A stretch of 64,000 nucleotides of DNA from Patescibacteria group bacterium (GCA_035506195.1 DATJPV010000036.1:16100-80099), one strand, 5' to 3'. Shown: positions 3,967 through 52,726, counted from the first letter of the stretch. A program made the numbers and translations. The notes: generated by a model not told the origin, from the sequence alone.

Positions 3967-4037
3967 GCGAGAGTAGTTCAGTGGCAGAACACCAGCTTCC
4001 CAAGCTGGATATGGGGGTTCGATTCCCCTCTCTCGCT
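3967..4037 (+). tRNA. tRNA-Gly (anticodon CCC)
   Basis: Cloverleaf by eye: acceptor GCGAGAG/CTCTCGC, anticodon stem CCAGC/GCTGG, loop TTCCCAA, T-loop TTCGATT, discriminator U. No encoded CCA. Confidence 0.85.
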
Positions 4038-4734: not shown

Positions 4735-6320
4735 AAAGCACGTTTGTCGGTAGGAAAGATTACCTGGGGATCCTGGAGAAGCGCATCCGCGACCTCAAGG
4801 ATGGGTACCGCCAGAATATCGCGATCATCGGCGACGAGATGGTGGGCAAGACTTCCATTATTTTCCGGTTCCTCAACAAATTCTGCGACAACCGGATCAT
4901 TACACTCTATTTTGAAACTAGGCCGGAATCGACGGTTTCCTTTGCGCGCAGGTTCATCTCGGTGCTGCTGTATAATTTCTTGAGCCACAGCGCTATCCCC
5001 CTGCAAGAGGACCTGGGCTTTCTTATGCGCGTATCTTCCAAATATATCCCCGTCACGATTGAGAGAATCAACCTGATCCTGGAGGGGCTGGACAAGAGAA
5101 AGAAAAATAACCTGTTCGGCGACCTGCTTTCGTTGTGCGAAAGTATCTACCAGGAAACTTCGAAATCCTGCGTGGTCATTTTTGATGAGTTCCTGAATCT
5201 CGAAAGCCTTGATGCCAAACACCTGTATAAAGAATGGTCCCGGCTCCTGATCTCCCAGAAACACACCATGTATATCATTATCAGCTCGATGAAATACCGG
5301 ACCAAGAACGTCCTGGCCAAAGACCTCTCCCTGTTGTTCGGCAATTTTGAGGTGATCACGATCGAGCCGTTCGATATCCCCGCTTCGGGGGAATATCTGG
5401 AGCAGAGGCTTGCGGGGGTAACGCTTGAGCCTGGGCTGAAAAATTTTATCATGCATCTCACCGGCGGCTACCCCTTTTACCTGGAAGTGGTTTCCGGGGC
5501 GCTGCTGAAATCATATCAGAACAACCTCTCGGATATACTGGAAGACCTGCTGTTCGAATCCTCAGGGATATTGCACCAGCGTTTTTCGGTCTACCTTAAG
5601 CGTTTTCTGGATGGTCCGCTTGGCCAGGGCAACGGCGCCATCTTGTCGTTGATCGCCAGCGGCCAGAACAGGCTCAACGATATCGCGCATATCCTGCGCC
5701 GGAGCAAAAAGGAACTGAACTTGCATATCGGCCAGCTCATGGAGCTCGACGCCATATCGCGCAGCGGAGATTTCCTGAAGGTAAATGACCGCGTGTTTGC
5801 TTTTTGGCTAAGGTTCGTGCACCAGAACAAGATCAGCTCTCTGGCCTTCGATGCCAAGAGCCAGAAAGCCGCCTTTAAGGAGCAGATCGAAAAAATGATC
5901 CAGGAATTCATGGCGGCGGCGCAGAAGCCGTTGATCGACCGGATGGCGGAACTGTTCCGTTCGTTCTCCGACGATACGCTTCAGCTTGAGCGCAAGCGCC
6001 TGAGGCTGGCGCATTTCCGGGAGATTAAACCCATGGAGCTCAACCGCGCCGGCCTGCGGGAAGGCCTGATCGGCCGTTCCCACGACAGCCTTTGGATCGT
6101 CGCGTTCAAAAAGGACTCTCTTACCGAAGAGGATGTGGCGGAATTCGCGAAAGAGTGCAAGAAATACCGGCACAAGCTGCAAACAAAAGTTATCGTGACC
6201 CTCAGGGATATCGATGCCAACGCACGGCTGCGGGCCCTGGAGGAAAAGATCTGGACCTGGGATATCAACCGGCTCAATCAGATCTTTGATCTGTTCTCTA
6301 AGCCCCGGGTGATCGCATAG
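4731..6320 (+). CDS. AAA+ ATPase (Arch_ATPase/PF01637-like, wHTH) with extra ~160-aa C-terminal domain
   Basis: FVGRKDYL...IAIIGDEMVGKTSI Walker A and VVIFDEF Walker B, then a winged-helix-like region and an unrecognised C-terminal domain. First gene of a tightly coupled five-gene operon. Confidence 0.6.
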   Translation: MKSTFVGRKDYLGILEKRIRDLKDGYRQNIAIIGDEMVGKTSIIFRFLNKFCDNRIITLYFETRPESTVSFARRFISVLLYNFLSHSAIPLQEDLGFLMRVSSKYIPVTIERINLILEGLDKRKKNNLFGDLLSLCESIYQETSKSCVVIFDEFLNLESLDAKHLYKEWSRLLISQKHTMYIIISSMKYRTKNVLAKDLSLLFGNFEVITIEPFDIPASGEYLEQRLAGVTLEPGLKNFIMHLTGGYPFYLEVVSGALLKSYQNNLSDILEDLLFESSGILHQRFSVYLKRFLDGPLGQGNGAILSLIASGQNRLNDIAHILRRSKKELNLHIGQLMELDAISRSGDFLKVNDRVFAFWLRFVHQNKISSLAFDAKSQKAAFKEQIEKMIQEFMAAAQKPLIDRMAELFRSFSDDTLQLERKRLRLAHFREIKPMELNRAGLREGLIGRSHDSLWIVAFKKDSLTEEDVAEFAKECKKYRHKLQTKVIVTLRDIDANARLRALEEKIWTWDINRLNQIFDLFSKPRVIA

Positions 6321-31902: not shown

Positions 31903-31975
31903 GGGCCCATAGCTCAGTGGTTAGAGCAGGTGACTCATAATCACTTGGTCCGGGGTTCGAATCCCTGTGGGCCCA
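31903..31975 (+). tRNA. tRNA with CAU anticodon; by similarity to E. coli ileX most likely tRNA-Ile2 (lysidine), otherwise elongator tRNA-Met
   Basis: Acceptor GGGCCCA/TGGGCCC. D-arm and anticodon arm (GGTGA CTCATAA TCACT) differ from remembered ileX (GGCGA CTCATAA TCGCT) at one compensated base pair in the anticodon stem. Confidence 0.8.
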
Positions 31976-32006: not shown

Positions 32007-32083
32007 GGGCGCATGGCTCAGCTGGTTAGAGCGCCACACTCACATTGTGGAGATCGAGGGTCCGAATCCTTCTGCGCCCACCA
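32007..32083 (+). tRNA. tRNA-Val (anticodon CAC), CCA encoded
   Basis: Acceptor GGGCGCA/TGCGCCC, anticodon stem CCACA/TGTGG with loop CTCACAT, T-loop TCCGAAT, 3' ACCA. Confidence 0.8.
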
Positions 32084-33237: not shown

Positions 33238-33602
33238 CCGGAGGGAGCGGAACGTGGCTACTCCCAGATTATACGGGAGAGGAAAGTCCGGGCTCCGCAG
33301 GGCAACGTAGTGGGTAACGCCCACATGGCCAACATAGGCCAATGATTAGAGCTACAGAGACGGATTACCCCGTTCACGATTTGCCTTTAGTTTGCGAAGC
33401 AAAGTAAAGGCAGTGGGGTATGTGAAACGAGCAATCTCTACGTGGAGCAAGGCCGAATAGGAGACCAGGGGTTGCCCATCCCGTTATGAGTCTCGGGTAG
33501 GCTGCTTAATCCCGGCGGTAACGCCGGGCTTTAGAGGAATGGCCACTTTAGGAAGCGGTATTCGCATCCCACACAGAACCCGGCTTATTCTGTTCCGTCC
33601 GG
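33238..33602 (+). ncRNA. rnpB: RNase P RNA (bacterial type A)
   Basis: Universally conserved GAGGAAAGTCCGGGCTCC (P4) plus ...GGGTAGGCTGCTT... and 3' ACAGAACCCGGCTTAT elements. P1 pairing CCGGAGGGAGCGGAAC / GTTCCGTCCGG. Ends are approximate. Confidence 0.85.
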
Positions 33603-44615: not shown

Positions 44616-44933
44616 ATGCTAGAGGACCGCAGGTGTTTTTTCCGTTTCCCCGCAACCGTGCCGTTGCGCTACCAGGATAACGACGGCGGTGTGCAGGGAT
44701 GGGGAGAAACGCACGATATCAGCGCCAAGGGGATCGGTTTTTTCACCGATCGAGAGATGCCGCCTGACACAAGCCTTGATATATGCCTGCAGGTCCCCGA
44801 TAGGGAAGATGGAATCTGCGTAAAAGGCAGTATCGTATGGTCGCGCCTGGTTGCTCCGCAGCGCTACCGGGTCGGCGTAAGCCTGGAAAAAGTGGATTTC
44901 ATCAGCATGTCGCACGTGTTGCGTTTGGCCTAA
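44616..44933 (+). CDS. PilZ-domain protein
   Basis: RRCFFRFPATVPLRYQ...DISAKGIGF PilZ motifs. Confidence 0.7.
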   Translation: MLEDRRCFFRFPATVPLRYQDNDGGVQGWGETHDISAKGIGFFTDREMPPDTSLDICLQVPDREDGICVKGSIVWSRLVAPQRYRVGVSLEKVDFISMSHVLRLA

Positions 44934-45079
44934 TTTTTCTCGAAAAAGCAACGCCTGTAAGTTCCCTGCCAGCCAGGAAGCTAAGGAAGGGATAGCCGGG
45001 TTGCCGAAGGACAGAGGAGGACTTTTAACTTATCGGGCAACCCGGCTTTTTATAAGCTCAGAGTGCAAAGGGGATCATT

Positions 45080-45412: not shown

Positions 45413-45558
45413 AGCCGCCTTTCGGGGGCTCCTCCAAAGAAAGCGTTTTCAGGTTGACAAAAAGCCAAATATCTGTTATACTTCCTTCAGACTTTTAAAA
45501 AGTATATATTACCGGGTGCCCTGATTAGGAGGAAATCAGGACACATACAGAAAATGTA

Positions 45559-45602: not shown

Positions 45603-45615
45603 GTATTTAAAGTCT

Positions 45616-45644
45616 TGACAAATAGAAATTTATATACTAAAATA
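45616..45644 (+). promoter_or_regulatory. Near-consensus sigma70 promoter for the surface-structure locus
   Basis: TTGACA (45616-45621), 17 nt, TAAAAT (45639-45644). About 60 nt upstream of the ATG at 45707, which is preceded by AAGGAG. Confidence 0.6.
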
Positions 45645-45706: not shown

Positions 45707-46306
45707 ATGGGGAAGTTGAAACTGGCGCTGTGCGCGGCGATGGCATTTGTGCTTGTGACCGGCGGCATGGCGTTTGCAGGGGAAAAGGTGTTGTTTGGAT
45801 TTGAGAAGGATATGGGCGGTTGGGAAATCCCCGACTGGGCAATGGAAAAGGAAGACTACGTAGGCACTAAGATCGAGCTATCGACCGCAGTTTTCAAAGA
45901 GGGAAAGTCTTGCCTTAAGCTCGACACCAAGTTCCCCGGAGGGAAATGGACTGCGGCTTATGTTGAGATCCAGCAATACTTCGATTGGACCGCTTACAGC
46001 GCGGTTGCGGTTGATGTCTATTTGCCGGAAACAGCACCGGTCGGCCTGAAATCAAAAATGATTTTGACCGTCGGCGAATCCTGGGCATGGGTCGAAATGG
46101 CACGCAGCACCGCTTTGGAGCCGGGAAAATGGACGACCATCACCGCTAATATCATGCCGGCTAGCACCGATTTTCGCGCTACGGTTGATGACGCCTTCAG
46201 GAAGGATATCCGCAAGGTCGGCGTCAGGATCGAATCCAATATGAAGCCCGTATATGAAGGGCCGGTGTATATTGACAATTTCAGATTGATTGAAGTAACC
46301 AAATAA
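45707..46306 (+). CDS. Secreted hypothetical protein, beta-sandwich/CBM-like
   Basis: Signal peptide MGKLKLALCAAMAFVLVTGGMAFAG. Aromatic-rich beta pattern (WEIPDW, WTAAYVEIQQYFDW). No catalytic motif. Confidence 0.5.
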   Translation: MGKLKLALCAAMAFVLVTGGMAFAGEKVLFGFEKDMGGWEIPDWAMEKEDYVGTKIELSTAVFKEGKSCLKLDTKFPGGKWTAAYVEIQQYFDWTAYSAVAVDVYLPETAPVGLKSKMILTVGESWAWVEMARSTALEPGKWTTITANIMPASTDFRATVDDAFRKDIRKVGVRIESNMKPVYEGPVYIDNFRLIEVTK

Positions 46307-46317
46307 CGAAGAGGGAG

Positions 46318-46902
46318 GTGAAACACATGATCAAATATGTAAAGATAATGATGTTGATTGGCTTAGGGCTAACGCTTGCGTATGCGCAAGCTTTCGCAGG
46401 GACCTCAACTGCTACAGCTACTGTTACGGCAACCGTGCCTTCAGTAACCACGGTTTCTCTTGCCCGTGATACCGGTTCAGCTACGCGCGGTTCAGCTAGC
46501 ACGATTATCTTCGATAAGCTGGATAGCCAGGACACGCCCGGTGGTGATGCGGGGTTGATGTACGCACCGTATCGTACTACCGAAAACGGCAAGAACTGGC
46601 ATTTCGCCAAGGTTGCGGCTAATGGCTCAACGTTGACATTAGCGCTTACCGTAAGCGGGACCGTAGGAGGCCAGCCGCTGTCGAACCTTTTGAAGGTTTA
46701 TTGCGGCGGTTTCTACCTGACAGGTTCTACGACCTTTATTAGCGGAACCAATTCAGCGGACTGGGAATTTGCCAGCGGTTGGCAGAGGACCTTGACTCAG
46801 GCGTTCATCGGGACAGTGCCGTTTAACTACCAGTTGAACGTTTCTGCCGTTGGTGCCGGTTCTTACTCCGGGTCGGTAACGTTTACCTTGACGACAACGT
46901 AG
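46318..46902 (+). CDS. Secreted fimbrial-subunit-like protein (spore-coat-U / DUF4402-like), putative major subunit
   Basis: Signal peptide ending AFAG. Mature N-terminus has an alternating TSTATATVTATVPSVTTVSL donor-strand-like segment. C-terminal GSYSGSVTFTLTTT strand. Followed by a stem-loop. Confidence 0.5.
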   Translation: MKHMIKYVKIMMLIGLGLTLAYAQAFAGTSTATATVTATVPSVTTVSLARDTGSATRGSASTIIFDKLDSQDTPGGDAGLMYAPYRTTENGKNWHFAKVAANGSTLTLALTVSGTVGGQPLSNLLKVYCGGFYLTGSTTFISGTNSADWEFASGWQRTLTQAFIGTVPFNYQLNVSAVGAGSYSGSVTFTLTTT

Positions 46903-46929
46903 TTATTCCTGCGTTGATTGTATGCATTT

Positions 46930-46966
46930 AATAGCTTGGGGCGGGTTTATCCTGCCCCAAGCTATT
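46930..46966 (+). terminator. Perfect 13-bp-stem hairpin between subunit genes 1 and 2 (no T-tract; attenuator/RNA-stability element)
   Basis: AATAGCTTGGGGC-(11 nt)-GCCCCAAGCTATT, ending 1 nt before the ATG at 46967. Confidence 0.5.
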
Positions 46967-47527
46967 ATGGCATATAAAGAAGGGTCGCTATTGAAGAAAC
47001 TAACATATTTTGCAGGTGCGCTGCTGGTATGTTTCTTGTTATACGCCCAGGCAGAGGCATTGGATTACAAAACTGACGATATCTCCGCCTCGGTGGAAGT
47101 ACTGCCTACCTTTGGTATCTCTCTCGATAATCTCAACCTTTATTTCGGCCTTATTCAGCCAGGCTCCACAAAAATATTAGGCGAGGGCACATTTTTCAAC
47201 CAGATCCACTGCCGTTCTAACTCCGGCCGGCCATGGTTCCTGAAGGCGCAGGTTGTTTCCCTGTCCCTGATGGAAAAACCGTATAAGGTGCCCGCCGGAA
47301 ATCTTAAATGGAAGGTTACGCAATGCACCGGTTCTGCGCAGCCGGCAGGCGGCTACGATTTTCAGTCGCTTACCGAAGAGCCGCTCCTTATGTATGCAAG
47401 TCAGGGAGATGACGACTTTGGCAAAGACGTAGTGCTATCTATGCAATATAGCCTGCAGTCGCCGTCCGATGCGCCGGCAGGCACGTATTCCGGCCAGATC
47501 GTTTTCACCATGGCAGAAAGCCCTTAA
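46967..47527 (+). CDS. Secreted fimbrial-subunit-like paralog 2
   Basis: Start moved to MAYKEG because the upstream part of ORF 46922 is the hairpin. Signal peptide ...YAQAEA. Alternating SASVEVLPTFGISL N-terminal segment. C-terminal AGTYSGQIVFTMAE. Paralogous to subunits 1 and 3 (shared CRS.NG...W.LK block). Confidence 0.5.
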   Translation: MAYKEGSLLKKLTYFAGALLVCFLLYAQAEALDYKTDDISASVEVLPTFGISLDNLNLYFGLIQPGSTKILGEGTFFNQIHCRSNSGRPWFLKAQVVSLSLMEKPYKVPAGNLKWKVTQCTGSAQPAGGYDFQSLTEEPLLMYASQGDDDFGKDVVLSMQYSLQSPSDAPAGTYSGQIVFTMAESP

Positions 47528-47530
47528 AGA

Positions 47531-48013
47531 ATGCTCAAAAAAATCATTATCTGCGCGTATATGTTGGCTTTGCCGGCGTTGGGGTATGCATCGCTGGAAC
47601 TGACTACCGACCACCGTTCGCTTTTCTTCGGGGCGATGCGCCTGGGGGAAGAAAAGGAGCTTGCGGATTTCGGCGGTTATCATAATGAAATTACCTGTCG
47701 TTCCACCAACGGGGCCATCTGGTACCTGAAGGTCAATCTCTTGCAGCCTTTAAGCTCGGGGGCCGACACGATCCCCGCGGAAAATCTTTCCTGGCAACTG
47801 ACTTGGACTAACGGTAACGGCACCAAGCCCGGCGGGGCGTATACCTATAAAAGCTTCAGCCTCATGCCTGACCTGGTTTACATAAGCGGGCCGGGTGAGT
47901 CGGCCGGCAACGGCATTACCTTGCAGTTCAAGTATTCCTTGAAGATCCCCGAAATTCAGCACAGCGGAGTATATAATGCGACTATCCGCTTTACCCTAAC
48001 GGAGATGTTTTGA
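47531..48013 (+). CDS. Secreted fimbrial-subunit-like paralog 3
   Basis: Signal peptide ...ALGYA; ITCRSTNGAIWYLKV block shared with paralog 2; C-terminal SGVYNATIRFTLTE. Confidence 0.5.
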   Translation: MLKKIIICAYMLALPALGYASLELTTDHRSLFFGAMRLGEEKELADFGGYHNEITCRSTNGAIWYLKVNLLQPLSSGADTIPAENLSWQLTWTNGNGTKPGGAYTYKSFSLMPDLVYISGPGESAGNGITLQFKYSLKIPEIQHSGVYNATIRFTLTEMF

Positions 48014-48786
48014 TGACAAAATATTGCCGTGCCCTGACGTGTATCCTATTGTGGTGTGCTGCGCTTATTGCGGAAGCTTACGCGTTCAGCATCGAGCCGG
48101 GCCGGATCGAACTGGCTATCCCCGCGGGCCGGCAGAGAGGCAAGACCGTTACGATAGACAATCGGGATTCGGATGAGTCCCTGCACTTGAAGATATACGC
48201 TACCGACGTGATCTTCCTGCCCGATGGTACGAATGACTTTCCGCAGGCCGGCGCTACTGCCTGGTCTTGCGTAAAATGGGTGCGGGTAACCCCCGATGAG
48301 ATCGATGTCCCCGCAAAAAAGACACAGACCGTACGCGTCAACGTCACGGTCCCGCAAGGGGCCCAGGGCGGCTATTACGGGATGCTTTTCTTTGAATCCG
48401 GCATGCCCAGCCCCGCTAAGGGGCTCAATATCAACTTCCGCGTGGGCGGCCTTGTCGATGTGTCCGTCCCGGGCACCGAACAGTTCAGCGCCAAGGTCGC
48501 GCATATCAGCCTGTCTAGCCCCAAGAAGATCGAGGTCGGGATCTTTAATGAAGGCAATGTGTTGGTCAGGCCCAAGGGCAAAGTGAAGATCATGGATGCC
48601 CGCGGCAAAAGAATAAAACAAATTGATTTTAACCCCGCGGGATGGGGAGTGCTGCCTCGCAGCCTGCGCAAACTATACGTGGACCTGGACAAGCCTTTGA
48701 CGAGCGGGCAGTATACTATCCGGGTCGAGATCAACTACGGAACGAAGTACTTGTTGGTAGGAGAATCTCCGGTGCAGGTGCAATGA
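48010..48786 (+). CDS. Periplasmic PapD-like chaperone candidate (pattern-based)
   Basis: Signal peptide. The N-terminal FSIEPGRIELAIPAGRQRGKTVTIDNRDSDESLHLKIY matches the PapD-family A1/B1 strand pattern. Two beta-rich halves. TGA overlaps the next ATG. Confidence 0.4.
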   Translation: MMTKYCRALTCILLWCAALIAEAYAFSIEPGRIELAIPAGRQRGKTVTIDNRDSDESLHLKIYATDVIFLPDGTNDFPQAGATAWSCVKWVRVTPDEIDVPAKKTQTVRVNVTVPQGAQGGYYGMLFFESGMPSPAKGLNINFRVGGLVDVSVPGTEQFSAKVAHISLSSPKKIEVGIFNEGNVLVRPKGKVKIMDARGKRIKQIDFNPAGWGVLPRSLRKLYVDLDKPLTSGQYTIRVEINYGTKYLLVGESPVQVQ

Positions 48787-51700
48787 TGGGCGGCCAATGG
48801 CCTAAAATAAAAAAAGTAGCGGCATTGGCAGTGGCGGCGGTTTTTCTTGTCAGCCACTGCGGGTTCGCCGGCGTTGTACCCGGCGCAATGGCCGCTGACT
48901 ATTTGTTCGAGGTCGGTAAGCATTTTTATGACCAGGGCCGTTATGCGGATGCGCTGCATGAGTTCCACAAGGCCCTCATGCTTAACCCCGTCCATAAAGA
49001 GGTGCTGCGGTATATCGGCCTGATCACCGGCGCTGCGCAAGAAGTCTACATGGAAAAAGGCGTGGCGGTAGGCGCCGAGGCTCCTGGCGCGCCCAGGCCC
49101 AAAAGAGCAGTCTCTCCGGTAGGAACCCCTTTGATAACGATGCCCGGGCAGGCGCCTGCCGTGGCGCCTGCCGTGCTGCCAAAGCCGCAAAAGTCCCGGG
49201 AACAGTCTCTGGCCGAAGCCTTGAACGCCCAAGAGGCCGCAGTGCACCCAGGGCCGCAGGTTCCGGCTAAACCCGTGGCGCCTGTTGTTGTTCCCCGCGC
49301 TGCCGTTACTCCCGCACCTGCTGTCCCCGCAGCAAAAGAAGAGGCCGCGGAAACAGAAGGCCCCCGCTTGAACCTGTCCGCCATACAGCCTGCAGCCGTC
49401 AAGAAAGCCGGCGAGATCAGCCTTTTCATCAACGGCCAGGAAGTTTCCCTTGAGGAAGCCGTCCTCTTTAAAGACGGCCAGATCCTGGTGCCCCTGAAAG
49501 CAATAGCCCCTAAGTTATACTATAACCTTTTAGACCTCCAGGGCGGAAAATTTTCGCTCATCAACCCGGAAGGCAAAGCCCGCGATATCGCCGCCGTGCT
49601 TCAAGACGGCAAGCCGATGCTCGATGAAGGGCAGATCCGGGAGTATTTTTCTGCCCGTACCCGTTATGACGCCCAAGCCAAGGCCTTTTACATCGATACC
49701 CAGGCAAGCCAGGGCCTGAAATTGTATGTCCTGGAAAGGCCGCCGGAAGAAATACAGAAAGAAGCCCAGCAGCAAAAAGTCATTGCGCAGGCAACCGCCG
49801 TTCCGGAAAAACCCTCTGTTATCCCCGATGCAGCCCGGCCTTCGCTGGATGTCAGAGGCAACCTCAATTACACGTATTTCAAATATCATGTACTTCCGGT
49901 ATATCACGACCTTTCCTCCAGCCTTTACGGCCGGCTTTACGATTACAACCTGGCTTACCGCTCGGAATATAAAGATATAAACGGGCCGGTAAAGAACGAT
50001 TATACGACCATGTCTTTGTCTAAGCCGGGCATATACTACGGATTTTTCGACCAGTCGGCAGACCTGTATCCGCTGCGCCTGCAGTCAAGCGAGTTTACCG
50101 GCATCAAGGTGGTCCGCTCCCGGAATGAACTGACCAATACGACCCTCTGGGGCGGCCAGACCGAGAATACCATTGCCGGCACAAGCGGTTCGGTCAAGTA
50201 CCTCGGCAAGCTCTTTGGGGCAAGCCAGGATTTTTCGCCTATATACTGGTTGCACCTGAAGGGCGGGATGCTCTACACGGATAATACCGCAGACCAGCCT
50301 TCCCAGGTCGGCACCACTTCATACCCTCGCCAGAATTTCGTTACGTATTCCAACATAGCGCTGCAGCTGCCGCAGAGCACTACGCTTACCCTTTCCGGAG
50401 CCCACTGTTATTATTATCCCGATTATGCCCCCGATAGCGTGGCGATCCAGGATTGGGATTGGCGCATCGGCACGAATACGAATAAGCCGCGCTATAGCCT
50501 CGGTTTTGCGTATGAGAGGGTCGGCGAAAATTACGTCTCTATCGGGGACTCCGGCATTTACCAGGATTACCAGGGATGGGACCTTTACGGCGGCTGGAGG
50601 CCCACTGACCACTGGTCCATATTCACCAACGCCTCGCAGTACCATGATAACGTCTCGGATGACCCCCAGTCGGTTACTACCTATGCATCCAATTACGGCC
50701 TGTCTTCCGCTTACCGCATTACCGGGGACCAGACCGTTAACCTTATGTACAACCATTTTGTTTCGAATCCCGAAGGTCCGGCAGCCGGCCCCAGCGGCGT
50801 CAGCAACGTCTACCGGATAGACTATTTCCTGCCGCTTTTTTATCAGGTCCGCGGCTCGCTGAACTATGCGCTTACTCACTCCGATTCCGGCGGCTCCTTC
50901 GATTACGACGCCCCCAGCATAGGCGGGACCTTGTTCAGGTCGTTTGGCCAGGGCTCCAGCTGGTACCTGAGCCAGCAGGCAACCAATACCCTTTACCGGA
51001 ACCGGCCGGATAGCCACGACTACACCACGACCTTTAACCTGTATTATGCCATCAATCCGCTTTTGGCCGCGTATTTCAACGCCTCCTATGTCAGGAATGA
51101 CACCGATGGGGCGCACTCCACGAATCAGCTCTCCGGTGCTTTAGGGACCAGGTATAGCCTGTTCCCGGATACCACGTTAAGCTTCGAGTACAGCATCAAT
51201 TCGTATGACTTGCGCACGGAAAGAGACCGCTGGCCGAAAAGCTGGTCCATGCTTTTCTACGTAGCGCAAGGGTTCCAGATCAAGACCTCCCCGAATTTCG
51301 GTACGCTTGAAGGCCGGGTTTTCCAGGACCTCAACGATAACGGCAGGTGGGATTCCGGCGAACCCGGGGTGGAGGGAGCGCTTGTATACCTGGACGACAG
51401 GAGAGAGGCGACTACCGATGCGCGCGGGTATTTCAAGATCAACTATATGAATCCGATCCCGCAAAAAGTGTACCTGGACCTGGCGACGGTACCGCCGGAA
51501 TGGATGACCGCCCAGACGGAACAGTGGGTCCAGGTCAAGCCCAGGCGGGCATCGACGGTCGTCTTTGCCTTGCGCAAGGCCGCCGGCATCAAAGGGCGCG
51601 TCTTTGTCGACCAGAACGGCGACGGCATCTTCCAGGAAACGGAAGAGCCGCTGGAAAGCGTGGTCTTAAAACTCTCCCCGGGCGATCATATCACCCAGAC

Positions 51701-51881
51701 CAACGCCGACGGAGAGTTCAAGTTCGAATCCCTGGCGCCGGGGCACTATGCCCTGTCGATCTCCCCGGACGGGATCCCGACGGGTTATGAACTTACCTCC
51801 AAATCGGAAATAAAAATGGACCTGGCCGCAGGGGCACAGGTCCATGATACCAACTTTGCTCTCAAGCTTTCTACCCGCTAA
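48783..51881 (+). CDS. Large outer-membrane protein: TPR-like N-term, Pro/Ala linker, Cu-amine-oxidase-N1-like domain, beta-barrel-like region, two C-terminal CnaB/SdrD-B-like beta-sandwich domains (usher-like domain order)
   Basis: Signal peptide MMGGQWPKIKKVAALAVAAVFLVSHCGFAG. A TPR-like segment (GRYADALHEFHKALMLNP), ISLFINGQEVSLEEAVLFKDGQILVPLKAIAP, about 530 aa rich in alternating Y/S/T/N/G, then two copies of GRVF.D.N.NG..D..E.G. The ORF track also starts in-frame at 48642. Confidence 0.5.
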   Translation: MMGGQWPKIKKVAALAVAAVFLVSHCGFAGVVPGAMAADYLFEVGKHFYDQGRYADALHEFHKALMLNPVHKEVLRYIGLITGAAQEVYMEKGVAVGAEAPGAPRPKRAVSPVGTPLITMPGQAPAVAPAVLPKPQKSREQSLAEALNAQEAAVHPGPQVPAKPVAPVVVPRAAVTPAPAVPAAKEEAAETEGPRLNLSAIQPAAVKKAGEISLFINGQEVSLEEAVLFKDGQILVPLKAIAPKLYYNLLDLQGGKFSLINPEGKARDIAAVLQDGKPMLDEGQIREYFSARTRYDAQAKAFYIDTQASQGLKLYVLERPPEEIQKEAQQQKVIAQATAVPEKPSVIPDAARPSLDVRGNLNYTYFKYHVLPVYHDLSSSLYGRLYDYNLAYRSEYKDINGPVKNDYTTMSLSKPGIYYGFFDQSADLYPLRLQSSEFTGIKVVRSRNELTNTTLWGGQTENTIAGTSGSVKYLGKLFGASQDFSPIYWLHLKGGMLYTDNTADQPSQVGTTSYPRQNFVTYSNIALQLPQSTTLTLSGAHCYYYPDYAPDSVAIQDWDWRIGTNTNKPRYSLGFAYERVGENYVSIGDSGIYQDYQGWDLYGGWRPTDHWSIFTNASQYHDNVSDDPQSVTTYASNYGLSSAYRITGDQTVNLMYNHFVSNPEGPAAGPSGVSNVYRIDYFLPLFYQVRGSLNYALTHSDSGGSFDYDAPSIGGTLFRSFGQGSSWYLSQQATNTLYRNRPDSHDYTTTFNLYYAINPLLAAYFNASYVRNDTDGAHSTNQLSGALGTRYSLFPDTTLSFEYSINSYDLRTERDRWPKSWSMLFYVAQGFQIKTSPNFGTLEGRVFQDLNDNGRWDSGEPGVEGALVYLDDRREATTDARGYFKINYMNPIPQKVYLDLATVPPEWMTAQTEQWVQVKPRRASTVVFALRKAAGIKGRVFVDQNGDGIFQETEEPLESVVLKLSPGDHITQTNADGEFKFESLAPGHYALSISPDGIPTGYELTSKSEIKMDLAAGAQVHDTNFALKLSTR

Positions 51882-51884
51882 CCT

Positions 51885-52106
51885 CTAGTTCTTCGCATAC
51901 GCGACCTGCGTATCCTCCTGTTGGTTCTGTTGCTCGGTTTTTTCCTCCTGCACAATCTGGGTTTGCGTTGCCGTCTCCCGCGCAGGGATGATGATGATGA
52001 CGGTGGCAGTAGCGCTTGCCTGTCCGGCATACACACAGTGGACCGGGATGCACAAAGATGCGAGCGTTGCGAATACGAGTATAAAGACTGTCAGTGTCTT
52101 TTTCAT
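51885..52106 (-). CDS. Small secreted peptide (73 aa) with donor-strand-like ATATVIIII motif and Gln/Glu/Thr-rich tail
   Basis: Strong ribosome-binding site AAGGAGG. Signal peptide ending VYAG. Mature N-terminus QASATATVIIIIPA resembles subunit 1 (TSTATATVTATV). Convergent with the outer-membrane-protein gene. Confidence 0.55.
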   Translation of the reverse strand: MKKTLTVFILVFATLASLCIPVHCVYAGQASATATVIIIIPARETATQTQIVQEEKTEQQNQQEDTQVAYAKN

Positions 52107-52207: not shown

Positions 52208-52471
52208 TCACCTTCCGTGGCCGGTGGTGGTACGTTGTCCCAAAACCTCCAGGACCCGACTTTCAAAATCCCTTTCAGACTTTATATTTTCTCCGGTGAT
52301 CCCCAGGTCTTTGACGAAATCGATCACCCAGGCGATCAATTTTGCCCGGGAGACCTTCAGGCCGGTAGAAAAGAGGGCGTCTTTTCCCATCTTGTCCAGG
52401 AAATCCACTTCTTCCCGGTTCAGGAAGGTCACAACGCGCTGATTTTTTTCTTCGGCAAGCACTGCGTCCAT
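52208..52471 (-). CDS. Small cytoplasmic protein, possible ribbon-helix-helix (CopG/Arc-like) regulator
   Basis: GGAG ribosome-binding site. The QRVVTFLNREEVDFLDKMGKD segment fits an RHH beta-strand plus helix. Preferred over the overlapping + ORF 52094..52534. Confidence 0.45.
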   Translation of the reverse strand: MDAVLAEEKNQRVVTFLNREEVDFLDKMGKDALFSTGLKVSRAKLIAWVIDFVKDLGITGENIKSERDFESRVLEVLGQRTTTGHGR

Positions 52472-52726
52472 TTGAATCTCCTATATAATGAAAACGGCCC
52501 CGTTACATTTCTGGGGCCGCATAAAAAACCCTAAAGAGGTCTTTAGGGTTTTTCTCCTCTTTGGCAGCTCAGCCTCCCGCTTGCGCGGGACTGTAGCTTT
52601 GCGCCCCAGCATTACTGCTAGTTAGCCTTTATCAGTAGGTCTTCCTAATTGTCAATTCAAGTATAGCACATTGTGGTAAGATTTCAAGGTTGCCAAAAGA
52701 TTTTTTTTACATTTTACAAATTGCGC

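Follow-up and report, generated by a model that had tools for sequence, protein, structure and literature searches.

A stretch of 64,000 nucleotides (GCA_035506195.1 DATJPV010000036.1:16100-80099, hereafter the window) carries, as the last gene of a co-directional cluster, a gene for a large predicted outer-membrane protein (OMP) at 48783..51881 on the plus strand. On balance, we read this OMP as a highly divergent usher-like pore for the export and assembly of the subunits encoded in the same cluster. This reading is based on the architecture of the protein, its fold matches, a weak collinear homology with ushers that includes both C-terminal domains, the linkage of its gene to subunit-like and chaperone-like genes, the replacement of the OMP by a secretin in one distant locus, and signs of control by cyclic di-GMP (c-di-GMP).

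The gene lies within a mechanical six-frame open reading frame (ORF) of 48642..51881. The ATG at 48783 (context gcaATGATGG) overlaps, as ATGA, the TGA of the preceding gene (48010..48786), and the secreted product has 1032 amino acids (aa). The Sec-type signal begins KKVAALAVAAVFLV; in full it reads KKVAALAVAAVFLVSHCGFAGVVPGAMA, followed by AD, with cleavage probably after GAMA. A database protein 100% identical to the OMP has 1031 aa, which indicates that its annotators took the second Met as start. The parts recognized along the protein are the following, with 30 full-length family members for comparison and a structure predicted by AlphaFold2 (AF2), whose local confidence is given as pLDDT (predicted local distance difference test).

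48783..48893, plus strand: aa 1-37, Sec signal peptide, read from the sequence, with an AF2 helix at aa 6-23.
48894..49028, plus strand: aa 38-82, short helical module resembling tetratricopeptide repeats (TPR), from TPR_2, consensus-TPR chains of the Protein Data Bank (PDB) and AF2; in 19 of 30 members.
49035..49397, plus strand: aa 85-205, Pro/Ala-rich linker, predicted to be disordered (pLDDT <50), variable or absent in homologues.
49407..49700, plus strand: aa 209-306, Cu_amine_oxidN1-like alpha/beta domain, followed by a helix at aa 321-338, both kept in 28 of 30 members.
49845..51284, plus strand: aa 355-834, predicted 26-strand beta-barrel with no inserted domain, from AF2, loop/turn asymmetry, conservation and fold matches.
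51300..51578, plus strand: aa 840-932, first C-terminal beta-sandwich (SdrD_B / CarboxypepD_reg type), aligning with the first C-terminal domain of ushers (CTD1).
51582..51872, plus strand: aa 934-1030, second C-terminal beta-sandwich (SdrD_B type), aligning with the second (CTD2).

The Pfam model SdrD_B (PF17210) reached 62.3 bits in the OMP (cut-off 29.7), in two stretches, and was found in all 30 family members. TPR_2 at aa 38-69 scored 24.8 bits, just below its cut-off of 27, and is matched by 11 of the 30 homologues. The same region matched consensus-TPR chains at E = 4.6e-8, the only result of the PDB sequence search, and AF2 placed four helices there (aa 35-82, pLDDT >90), corresponding to about 1.5 repeats only. 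Cu_amine_oxidN1 (PF07833) at aa 209-245 also remained below its cut-off (20.7 bits, cut-off 24.2); it was matched by 14 of the 30 homologues at E ≤ 0.01, with a best value of 2.9e-11. In the family alignment, 28 members have residues in the Cu_amine_oxidN1-like columns, and 19 have them in the TPR columns. As many homologues match and the columns are conserved, both matches can be taken as real at the family level. Moreover, the whole architecture is kept in a 41%-identical homologue (P0002) and across the 30 members, so that this combination of domains is not due to chance. Neither the OMP nor its neighbours gave any NCBIfam or PHROGs match.

The AF2 model, calculated from a 30-sequence alignment, had a mean pLDDT of 81 and a predicted template modelling score (pTM) of 0.60; a 2-sequence alignment gave a pLDDT of only 31.7. 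It shows 26 consecutive strands of 10-19 residues each between aa 355 and 834 (pLDDT mostly >90), preceded by the alpha/beta domain at 213-306 (pLDDT ~83) and the helix at 321-338, and followed by the two sandwiches at 840-932 and 934-1030 (pLDDT 85-92). Because the longest connection between strands has 15 residues, no plug domain is inserted in the predicted barrel. The odd-numbered connections total 95 residues and the even-numbered ones 31; long outer loops and short periplasmic turns are the classical pattern of outer-membrane barrels. In view of the even number of strands and the short even-numbered connections, both termini of the modelled protein, including the C-terminal sandwiches, are most likely periplasmic. 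Conservation within the barrel is highest in two odd-numbered connections, 428-434 (LYPLRLQ) and 581-595 (GENYVSIGDSGIYQD). Several strands alternate weakly and the soluble C-terminal sandwiches score higher, therefore amphipathicity was not used as proof of membrane insertion.

A preliminary description of this DNA had announced a 1032-aa outer-membrane protein with a TPR, a segment like Cu-amine oxidase N1, a barrel-like centre and two CnaB/SdrD-B-like domains. All of these were recovered: the ORF is real and starts with a signal peptide, the sub-threshold Cu_amine_oxidN1 match falls on exactly the peptide that had been quoted, and the centre is predicted as a large transmembrane-type beta-barrel and not as a soluble, non-barrel fold. 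The strand count and the presence of a plug, which had been named as points to check, were read from the AF2 prediction as 26 strands and no inserted plug. By contrast, the likening of the C-terminal domains to adhesin stalks was not supported, as these domains are most likely periplasmic and align with CTD1 and CTD2 of ushers.

In a fimbrial usher the barrel has 24 strands, a beta-sandwich plug sits between strands 6 and 7, and CTD1 and CTD2 lie in the periplasm. The predicted ground plan of the OMP follows that of fimbrial ushers (FimD, PapC; PF00577, PF13954, PF13953): an N-terminal module in the periplasm, then a monomeric barrel of very large size, then two periplasmic beta-sandwiches at the C-terminus. 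In a Foldseek search of the model against the PDB, the 12 best matches were all full-length FimD/PapC ushers (E = 1.9e-20 to 1.8e-13); isolated usher pores followed at about 3-8e-9, TonB-dependent transporters from about 3e-8 and MtrB at 4e-8. Ushers are thereby the best fold match of the predicted structure, clearly for the whole architecture and only narrowly for the barrel alone.

Profiles were also compared with hhalign, using as references the fimbrial operons of E. coli K-12 (8 ushers, 11 chaperones) and five TonB-dependent transporters. The OMP family aligned with the 8 ushers at 85% probability (E = 6e-6, score 60.1), in a collinear alignment running from the last ~8 strands through CTD1 and CTD2. 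As controls, reversed ushers scored 33.4, shuffled columns 16-22 and the five TonB-dependent transporters 42.6 (29%). This comparison of profiles is suggestive, and not conclusive, of a remote homology with ushers rather than convergence. Similarity of the barrel alone in hhalign was dropped as evidence: the reversed-usher control had reached 44.9 in a first test, and the barrel-only region gave 1.4%.

The genes upstream of the OMP gene form with it a cluster with at least two overlapping junctions (47531-48013/48010-48786, and the ATGA at 48783-48786), as follows.

45454-45482 and 45615-45643, plus strand: two sigma-70-like promoter matches upstream of the first cluster gene, each 11/12, consensus matches only.
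45707..46306, plus strand: first cluster gene, 199-aa secreted protein with a galactose-binding-like / CBM27-like (mannan-binding type) domain.
46318..46902, plus strand: 194-aa subunit-like secreted protein (group G1) with a signal peptide, paralogue of the next two genes.
46922..47527, plus strand: 201-aa ORF, subunit-like paralogue (group G2).
47531..48013, plus strand: 160-aa subunit-like paralogue (group G3), without the ~15-20-aa N-terminal strand of G1 and G2.
48010..48786, plus strand: 258-aa secreted protein, proposed periplasmic chaperone-like partner, translationally coupled to the genes on both sides.

The three subunit-like proteins are paralogous, with hhalign probabilities of 99.4-100% (99.4% for G1 against the next two, 100% for G2 against G3). 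Each has a signal peptide, and their C-termini share a conserved strand, G-x-Y-x-x-x-[IV]-x-[FY]-T-[ML], followed by TE. G1 has a T/A/V-alternating N-terminal strand (TSTATATVTATVPS) and the C-terminal motif AGSYSGSVTFTLTTT. An N-terminal strand that is present in fibre subunits and absent from the distal subunit is the pattern of chaperone-usher systems. For G2, the true start is probably an internal ATG at ~46967, since the signal peptide begins KKLTYFAGALL and the first 15 codons have no counterpart in orthologues. The 199-aa protein matched Pfam Mann_GBD_bact (32.2 bits, cut-off 27) and CBM27 (23.5 bits, cut-off 20).

Judging from weak Pfam matches, the 258-aa protein probably consists of two immunoglobulin (Ig)-like domains. 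Its family (8 members) gave weak, recurrent Pfam matches to Cep192_D6, OCRL-like ASH, NPCBM_assoc, WxLIP_PGBD and WxLIP_HBD, and no PapD_N or PapD_C match was found in the protein or its family. Against the PDB, its profile matched EfmWxLIP1 best (E = 0.005), followed by EcpB, a fimbrial chaperone (E = 0.06); shallow profiles of the neighbour proteins had no match there. In hhalign, the mature protein reached 62% against the 11 E. coli fimbrial chaperones (2.8% for the reversed control) and 33% against EcpB/EcpE.

Related loci, designated by L numbers, provide the linkage evidence. Eight loci have enough upstream flank (the window, L001, L002, L003, L005, L010, L011 and L012), and in all eight 2-5 small secreted paralogues are followed by a ~260-aa chaperone-like gene and then by the OMP gene. 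This order is interrupted by a small helix-turn-helix ORF in L003 and persists at OMP identities as low as ~23-29%. Orthologues of the 258-aa protein, 56-63% identical, stand directly upstream of the OMP in L001 and L002, and homologues of the 199-aa protein occur in or near the cluster in L012, L011 and L005. Fimbrial usher operons (csu-type, fim-type) likewise place the usher gene after subunit genes and a chaperone gene. In the window and in L002 the cluster lies between lepA-lepB-plsY-PilZ and gatCAB. Other loci adjoin genes for glycan utilisation, comprising glycoside hydrolases GH26, GH94 (two copies) and GH113, DUF5060/cellulase, the carbohydrate-binding module CBM9, Mann_GBD, SBP_bac_1, ABC permeases and ROK:

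L003 362-4091 and 12610-18451, L005 8769-13666, L011 1-5116: glycan-utilisation genes of mannan/glucan type, absent around the window copy.

A further locus, L009 (6444-14541) of the Bacillota metagenome-assembled genome (MAG) MAG107, encodes a 628-aa protein with two tandem chaperone-like modules (26% identity). ORFs of 743 and 260 aa precede it, and a secretin (PF00263, 6e-44) follows. A secretin placed after this relative of the chaperone-like protein suggests that the partner outer-membrane protein is an exporter. L009 may represent a similar kind of system built around a secretin, in a Bacillota lineage that possibly has two membranes. A 348-aa ORF located after the secretin is a candidate outer-membrane protein.

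Elements linked to c-di-GMP were detected on both sides of the cluster.

52560..52637, minus strand: c-di-GMP-I riboswitch aptamer (Rfam RF01051, 64.2 bits, gathering score 35).
52687-52660 and 52553-52524, minus strand: promoter-like site upstream of the riboswitch and terminator-like hairpin downstream of it.
44616-44933, plus strand: stand-alone PilZ-domain protein upstream of the cluster (PF07238, E = 1.2e-12).

Most related loci have an equivalent riboswitch beside the OMP gene: one follows it closely in L002, L007, L010 and L011, and two in tandem do so in L003. L003 has a further one on the plus strand (4816-4891), directly upstream of the first subunit gene. Upstream of the window operon there is no such riboswitch, only a sub-threshold match of 19.7 bits at 44939-45009. 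PilZ genes also occur near the cluster in L002 (5467-5838) and L003 (16857-17192) and constitute a second link to c-di-GMP signalling. The riboswitches and the nearby PilZ gene fit the regulation of a surface or adhesion structure.

Several observations weigh against the usher-like reading. Random subsets of five ushers scored 39.6-53.6 in hhalign against 42.6 for the TonB-dependent transporters, so the margins are modest. No Usher, PapC_N, PapC_C or PapD_N Pfam match was found at E ≤ 1 in the window proteins, nor were these models among the matches of the 30 OMP members (E ≤ 0.01) or of the 8 chaperone-like members (E ≤ 1). The predicted barrel has 26 strands rather than 24 and no inserted plug. 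The subunits had no Pfam, NCBIfam or PDB match and gave 3-6% in hhalign against E. coli pilins. For the 258-aa protein, an initial 80.7% to chaperones was rejected as it came from aligned signal peptides, and trimming lowered it to 5.6% (five chaperones); at normal thresholds neither this protein nor the subunits show detectable homology to PapD or pilins, unlike the components of chaperone-usher systems. The glycan-utilisation neighbours are equally compatible with a role in uptake. The modules also differ: the N-terminal one combines a TPR with a Cu_amine_oxidN1-like domain and is not the N-terminal domain of ushers, the C-terminal ones are of SdrD_B / CarboxypepD_reg type, and the named hosts of the family are Omnitrophota.

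Because the protein has no usher Pfam match and its predicted barrel has neither 24 strands nor a plug, we do not place it in the usher family but file it as working like an usher, and maybe distantly related to one. The view of the preliminary description that the domain mix is unlike known ushers needs qualification, since a periplasmic N-terminal module, a barrel and two sandwiches, in this order, form the ground plan of an usher. Its proposal of an usher analogue or export pore for the upstream subunits agrees with the predicted barrel and with the conserved operon of subunits, chaperone-like protein and OMP, while the protein may assemble fibres or may only export or import something.

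In the mechanism that we envisage, the three small paralogues, perhaps together with the CBM-like protein, would be exported by Sec and held in the periplasm by the 258-aa protein, which would act as a chaperone through its probable two Ig-like domains. The subunits would then be handed to the periplasmic modules that flank the barrel of the OMP, with the Cu_amine_oxidN1-like domain and the helix before it and the two beta-sandwiches after it. They would pass through the 26-strand barrel to the surface, outwards, where they would probably form a fibre or a surface complex, polymerisation being presumed by analogy.

The main competing explanation is a large TonB-independent pore for the uptake of manno-oligosaccharides or other glycans, in which the small proteins and the CBM-like protein would be glycan-binding accessories at the surface or in the periplasm, functionally analogous to a Sus-like or porin-plus-binding-protein system. 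The Mann_GBD_bact/CBM27-like first gene fits this, as do the hydrolase, cellulase-like, CBM9, sugar-ABC and ROK genes adjoining related loci. Two loops are the most conserved parts of the barrel, as in specific porins; and although the OMP itself has no Porin_4 or OMP_b-brl match in Pfam, weak ones occur in 2 of 30 members, and distant barrel relatives match Porin_4, OMP_b-brl or SlpA_C. However, the flanks in the window and L002 are housekeeping genes (lepA, lepB, plsY, gatCAB) and not glycan genes, and the invariant partners are subunit-like paralogues and a chaperone-like protein, not hydrolases or transporters. A porin role would also leave unexplained the sandwiches aligned with CTD1/CTD2 and the full-length usher fold matches. 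Control by c-di-GMP riboswitches is more typical of adhesion and surface structures. General and specific porins have 16-18 strands, against 26 predicted here, and TonB-dependent transporters, including SusC, have 22; the CarboxypepD_reg-like domains of the OMP are C-terminal, it has no Plug or TonB_dep_Rec Pfam match, and hhalign gave the 29% cited above. All considered, we regard uptake as unlikely. The TPR-plus-barrel exporters of exopolysaccharides (BcsC, PgaA, PelB, AlgK/AlgE) are also different: their barrels have 16-18 strands and their TPR arrays are long, whereas the OMP has 26 strands, about 1.5 TPR units (in 19 of 30 members) and two C-terminal sandwiches, and the cluster encodes no polysaccharide synthase.

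Export without a fibre is another explanation: the OMP would deliver a non-polymeric, cell-bound complex, as a two-membrane counterpart of the Gram-positive WxL/WxLIP (Csc) systems, with the 258-aa protein as a WxLIP-like stabiliser. The subunit C-terminus (AG-Y...-[FY]TMTE-P) resembles the second WxL motif. Carbohydrate-utilisation genes are found nearby in our loci; for the Gram-positive side, a study of Lactobacillus plantarum gene clusters, which we take to be Csc/WxL clusters, is said, by its title, to concern putative cell-surface protein complexes for carbohydrate utilisation (PMC1534035). The sequence links point in the same direction: EfmWxLIP1 is the best PDB sequence match of the 258-aa profile, and Pfam WxLIP_PGBD was found in 4 of 8 members and WxLIP_HBD in 1 of 8, at 3e-5. 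WxL clusters combine several WxL paralogues with one two-Ig-domain WxLIP (PMC10599100), much as small secreted paralogues stand beside one Ig-like-domain protein, probably with two such domains, in the window. A strand of WxLIP is predicted to insert into WxL, and the definition of a cluster calls for a WxLIP with PGBD, HBD and a transmembrane helix and at least 2 WxL-domain proteins (PMC10599100). Here, however, every WxLIP match is below its curated cut-off, the 258-aa protein lacks the C-terminal transmembrane helix that anchors WxLIP, no WxL Pfam match was found among 24 subunits, and no subunit matched a WxL chain of the PDB. The present cluster also differs by its dedicated outer-membrane barrel and by the two membranes that it would span. 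Such a complex seems to us improbable. There is only a slim chance that the OMP is an envelope tether or structural porin, similar to OmpM or SlpA, that anchors the outer membrane to the cell wall through its periplasmic TPR, Cu_amine_oxidN1-like domain and sandwiches and exports none of its neighbours. SlpA_C is present in 4 of 27 distant barrel relatives, and Cu_amine_oxidN1 domains are common in envelope proteins. On the other hand, the Pfam scan of the OMP revealed no SLH, OmpA-like or other recognised peptidoglycan-binding domain, the family is rare, with mostly single-sequence clusters (10 members checked), unlike a major structural protein, and the strict operon linkage to secreted paralogues would be unexplained.

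The usher-like OMP has few relatives. A word-indexed search of 5.8 billion proteins retrieved only the identical protein, the 41%-identical homologue P0002 and a fragment; repeated with the 30-member alignment, it returned only unrelated SdrD_B proteins. An exhaustive HMMER search of 1.84 billion cluster representatives with a barrel-only profile gave 77 matches at E ≤ 1e-3, 41 at E ≤ 1e-10 and 34 at E ≤ 1e-30. A barrel segment of ~500 aa is common to the 30 full-length members, nearly all of which also have a C-terminal tail of ~195 aa; their N-terminal region ranges from ~170 to 730 aa. The more distant barrel matches carry Porin_4, OMP_b-brl, SlpA_C or Wzi domains, which places the barrel in the general world of outer-membrane barrels. 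Even on a cautious reading, these large outer-membrane barrels make up a new family, for which neither Pfam nor NCBIfam has a model.

An organism name was looked up for 10 members and found for 3, all of them Candidatus Omnitrophica/Omnitrophota proteins annotated as hypothetical protein. An initial scan of genome contigs with the barrel profile gave no match; matches from the genome scan were located in two Omnitrophica MAGs, Candidatus Subteraquimicrobium and one Bacillota MAG. Synteny and the named relatives argue for the Omnitrophota as source of the window. At NCBI, the MAG with the identical protein (P0001) is labelled 'Patescibacteria group bacterium', a label that looks doubtful.

Chaperone-usher assembly is regarded as a largely proteobacterial invention with one recognisable usher family. 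If the OMP is indeed a divergent usher-type protein, the pathway extends to a new phylum and to a new barrel design with 26 strands and no inserted plug. It would also suggest how WxL-type complexes and pili may be related, and would provide a concrete c-di-GMP-controlled apparatus for adhesion or glycan capture in the Omnitrophota. We found no account of such a system in the searchable literature on Omnitrophota pili, Omnitrophica chaperone-usher systems or 26-strand ushers. According to PMC10066038, the Omnitrophota have not been cultivated and are mostly ultra-small, and almost nothing is known of their surface biology.

Between the OMP gene and the riboswitch lie two small convergent genes, and counterparts of the first, of 71-108 aa, directly follow the OMP gene in other loci.

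51885..52106, minus strand: 73-aa ORF with a signal peptide and one beta-strand motif (SATATVIIIIPAR).
52208..52471, minus strand: 87-aa ORF between the riboswitch and the 73-aa ORF, 45% identical to L010 10160-10411 (minus strand).
L001 4332-4547, L003 11101-11376, L005 5663-5989, minus strand: mini-gene counterparts.
L010 9595-9876, L011 10870-11109, L012 7217-7474, minus strand: mini-gene counterparts.

The 87-aa ORF lacks a signal peptide; its only Pfam match, DUF4272 at E = 0.009, is not significant. The motif of the mini-genes, (S/T)xAxVx(I/V)(I/V)(I/V)xPx(K/R), resembles the N-terminal strand of G1 (TATATVTATVPS). As pure speculation, the mini-protein could act as a free 'donor-strand-like' peptide and, controlled by c-di-GMP, cap or modulate assembly.

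A fuller picture, tentative and in our opinion rather doubtful, is that the cluster represents an unrecognised pathway for a surface fibre or complex, mainly in Omnitrophota. As an extremely divergent relative of chaperone-usher pili, it would combine a plug-less 26-strand usher with a periplasmic partner related to the Gram-positive WxLIP, and so form an evolutionary bridge from the WxL/Csc surface complexes of single-membrane cells to the chaperone-usher systems of two-membrane ones. It would be switched by c-di-GMP riboswitches, possibly via a secreted 'donor-strand-only' mini-protein, and would bind mannan-type glycans.

Finally, the following RNA genes were observed elsewhere in the window.

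33244-33600, plus strand: bacterial class A RNase P RNA (176 bits).
3967-4037, 31903-31975 and 32007-32080, plus strand: three tRNA genes.

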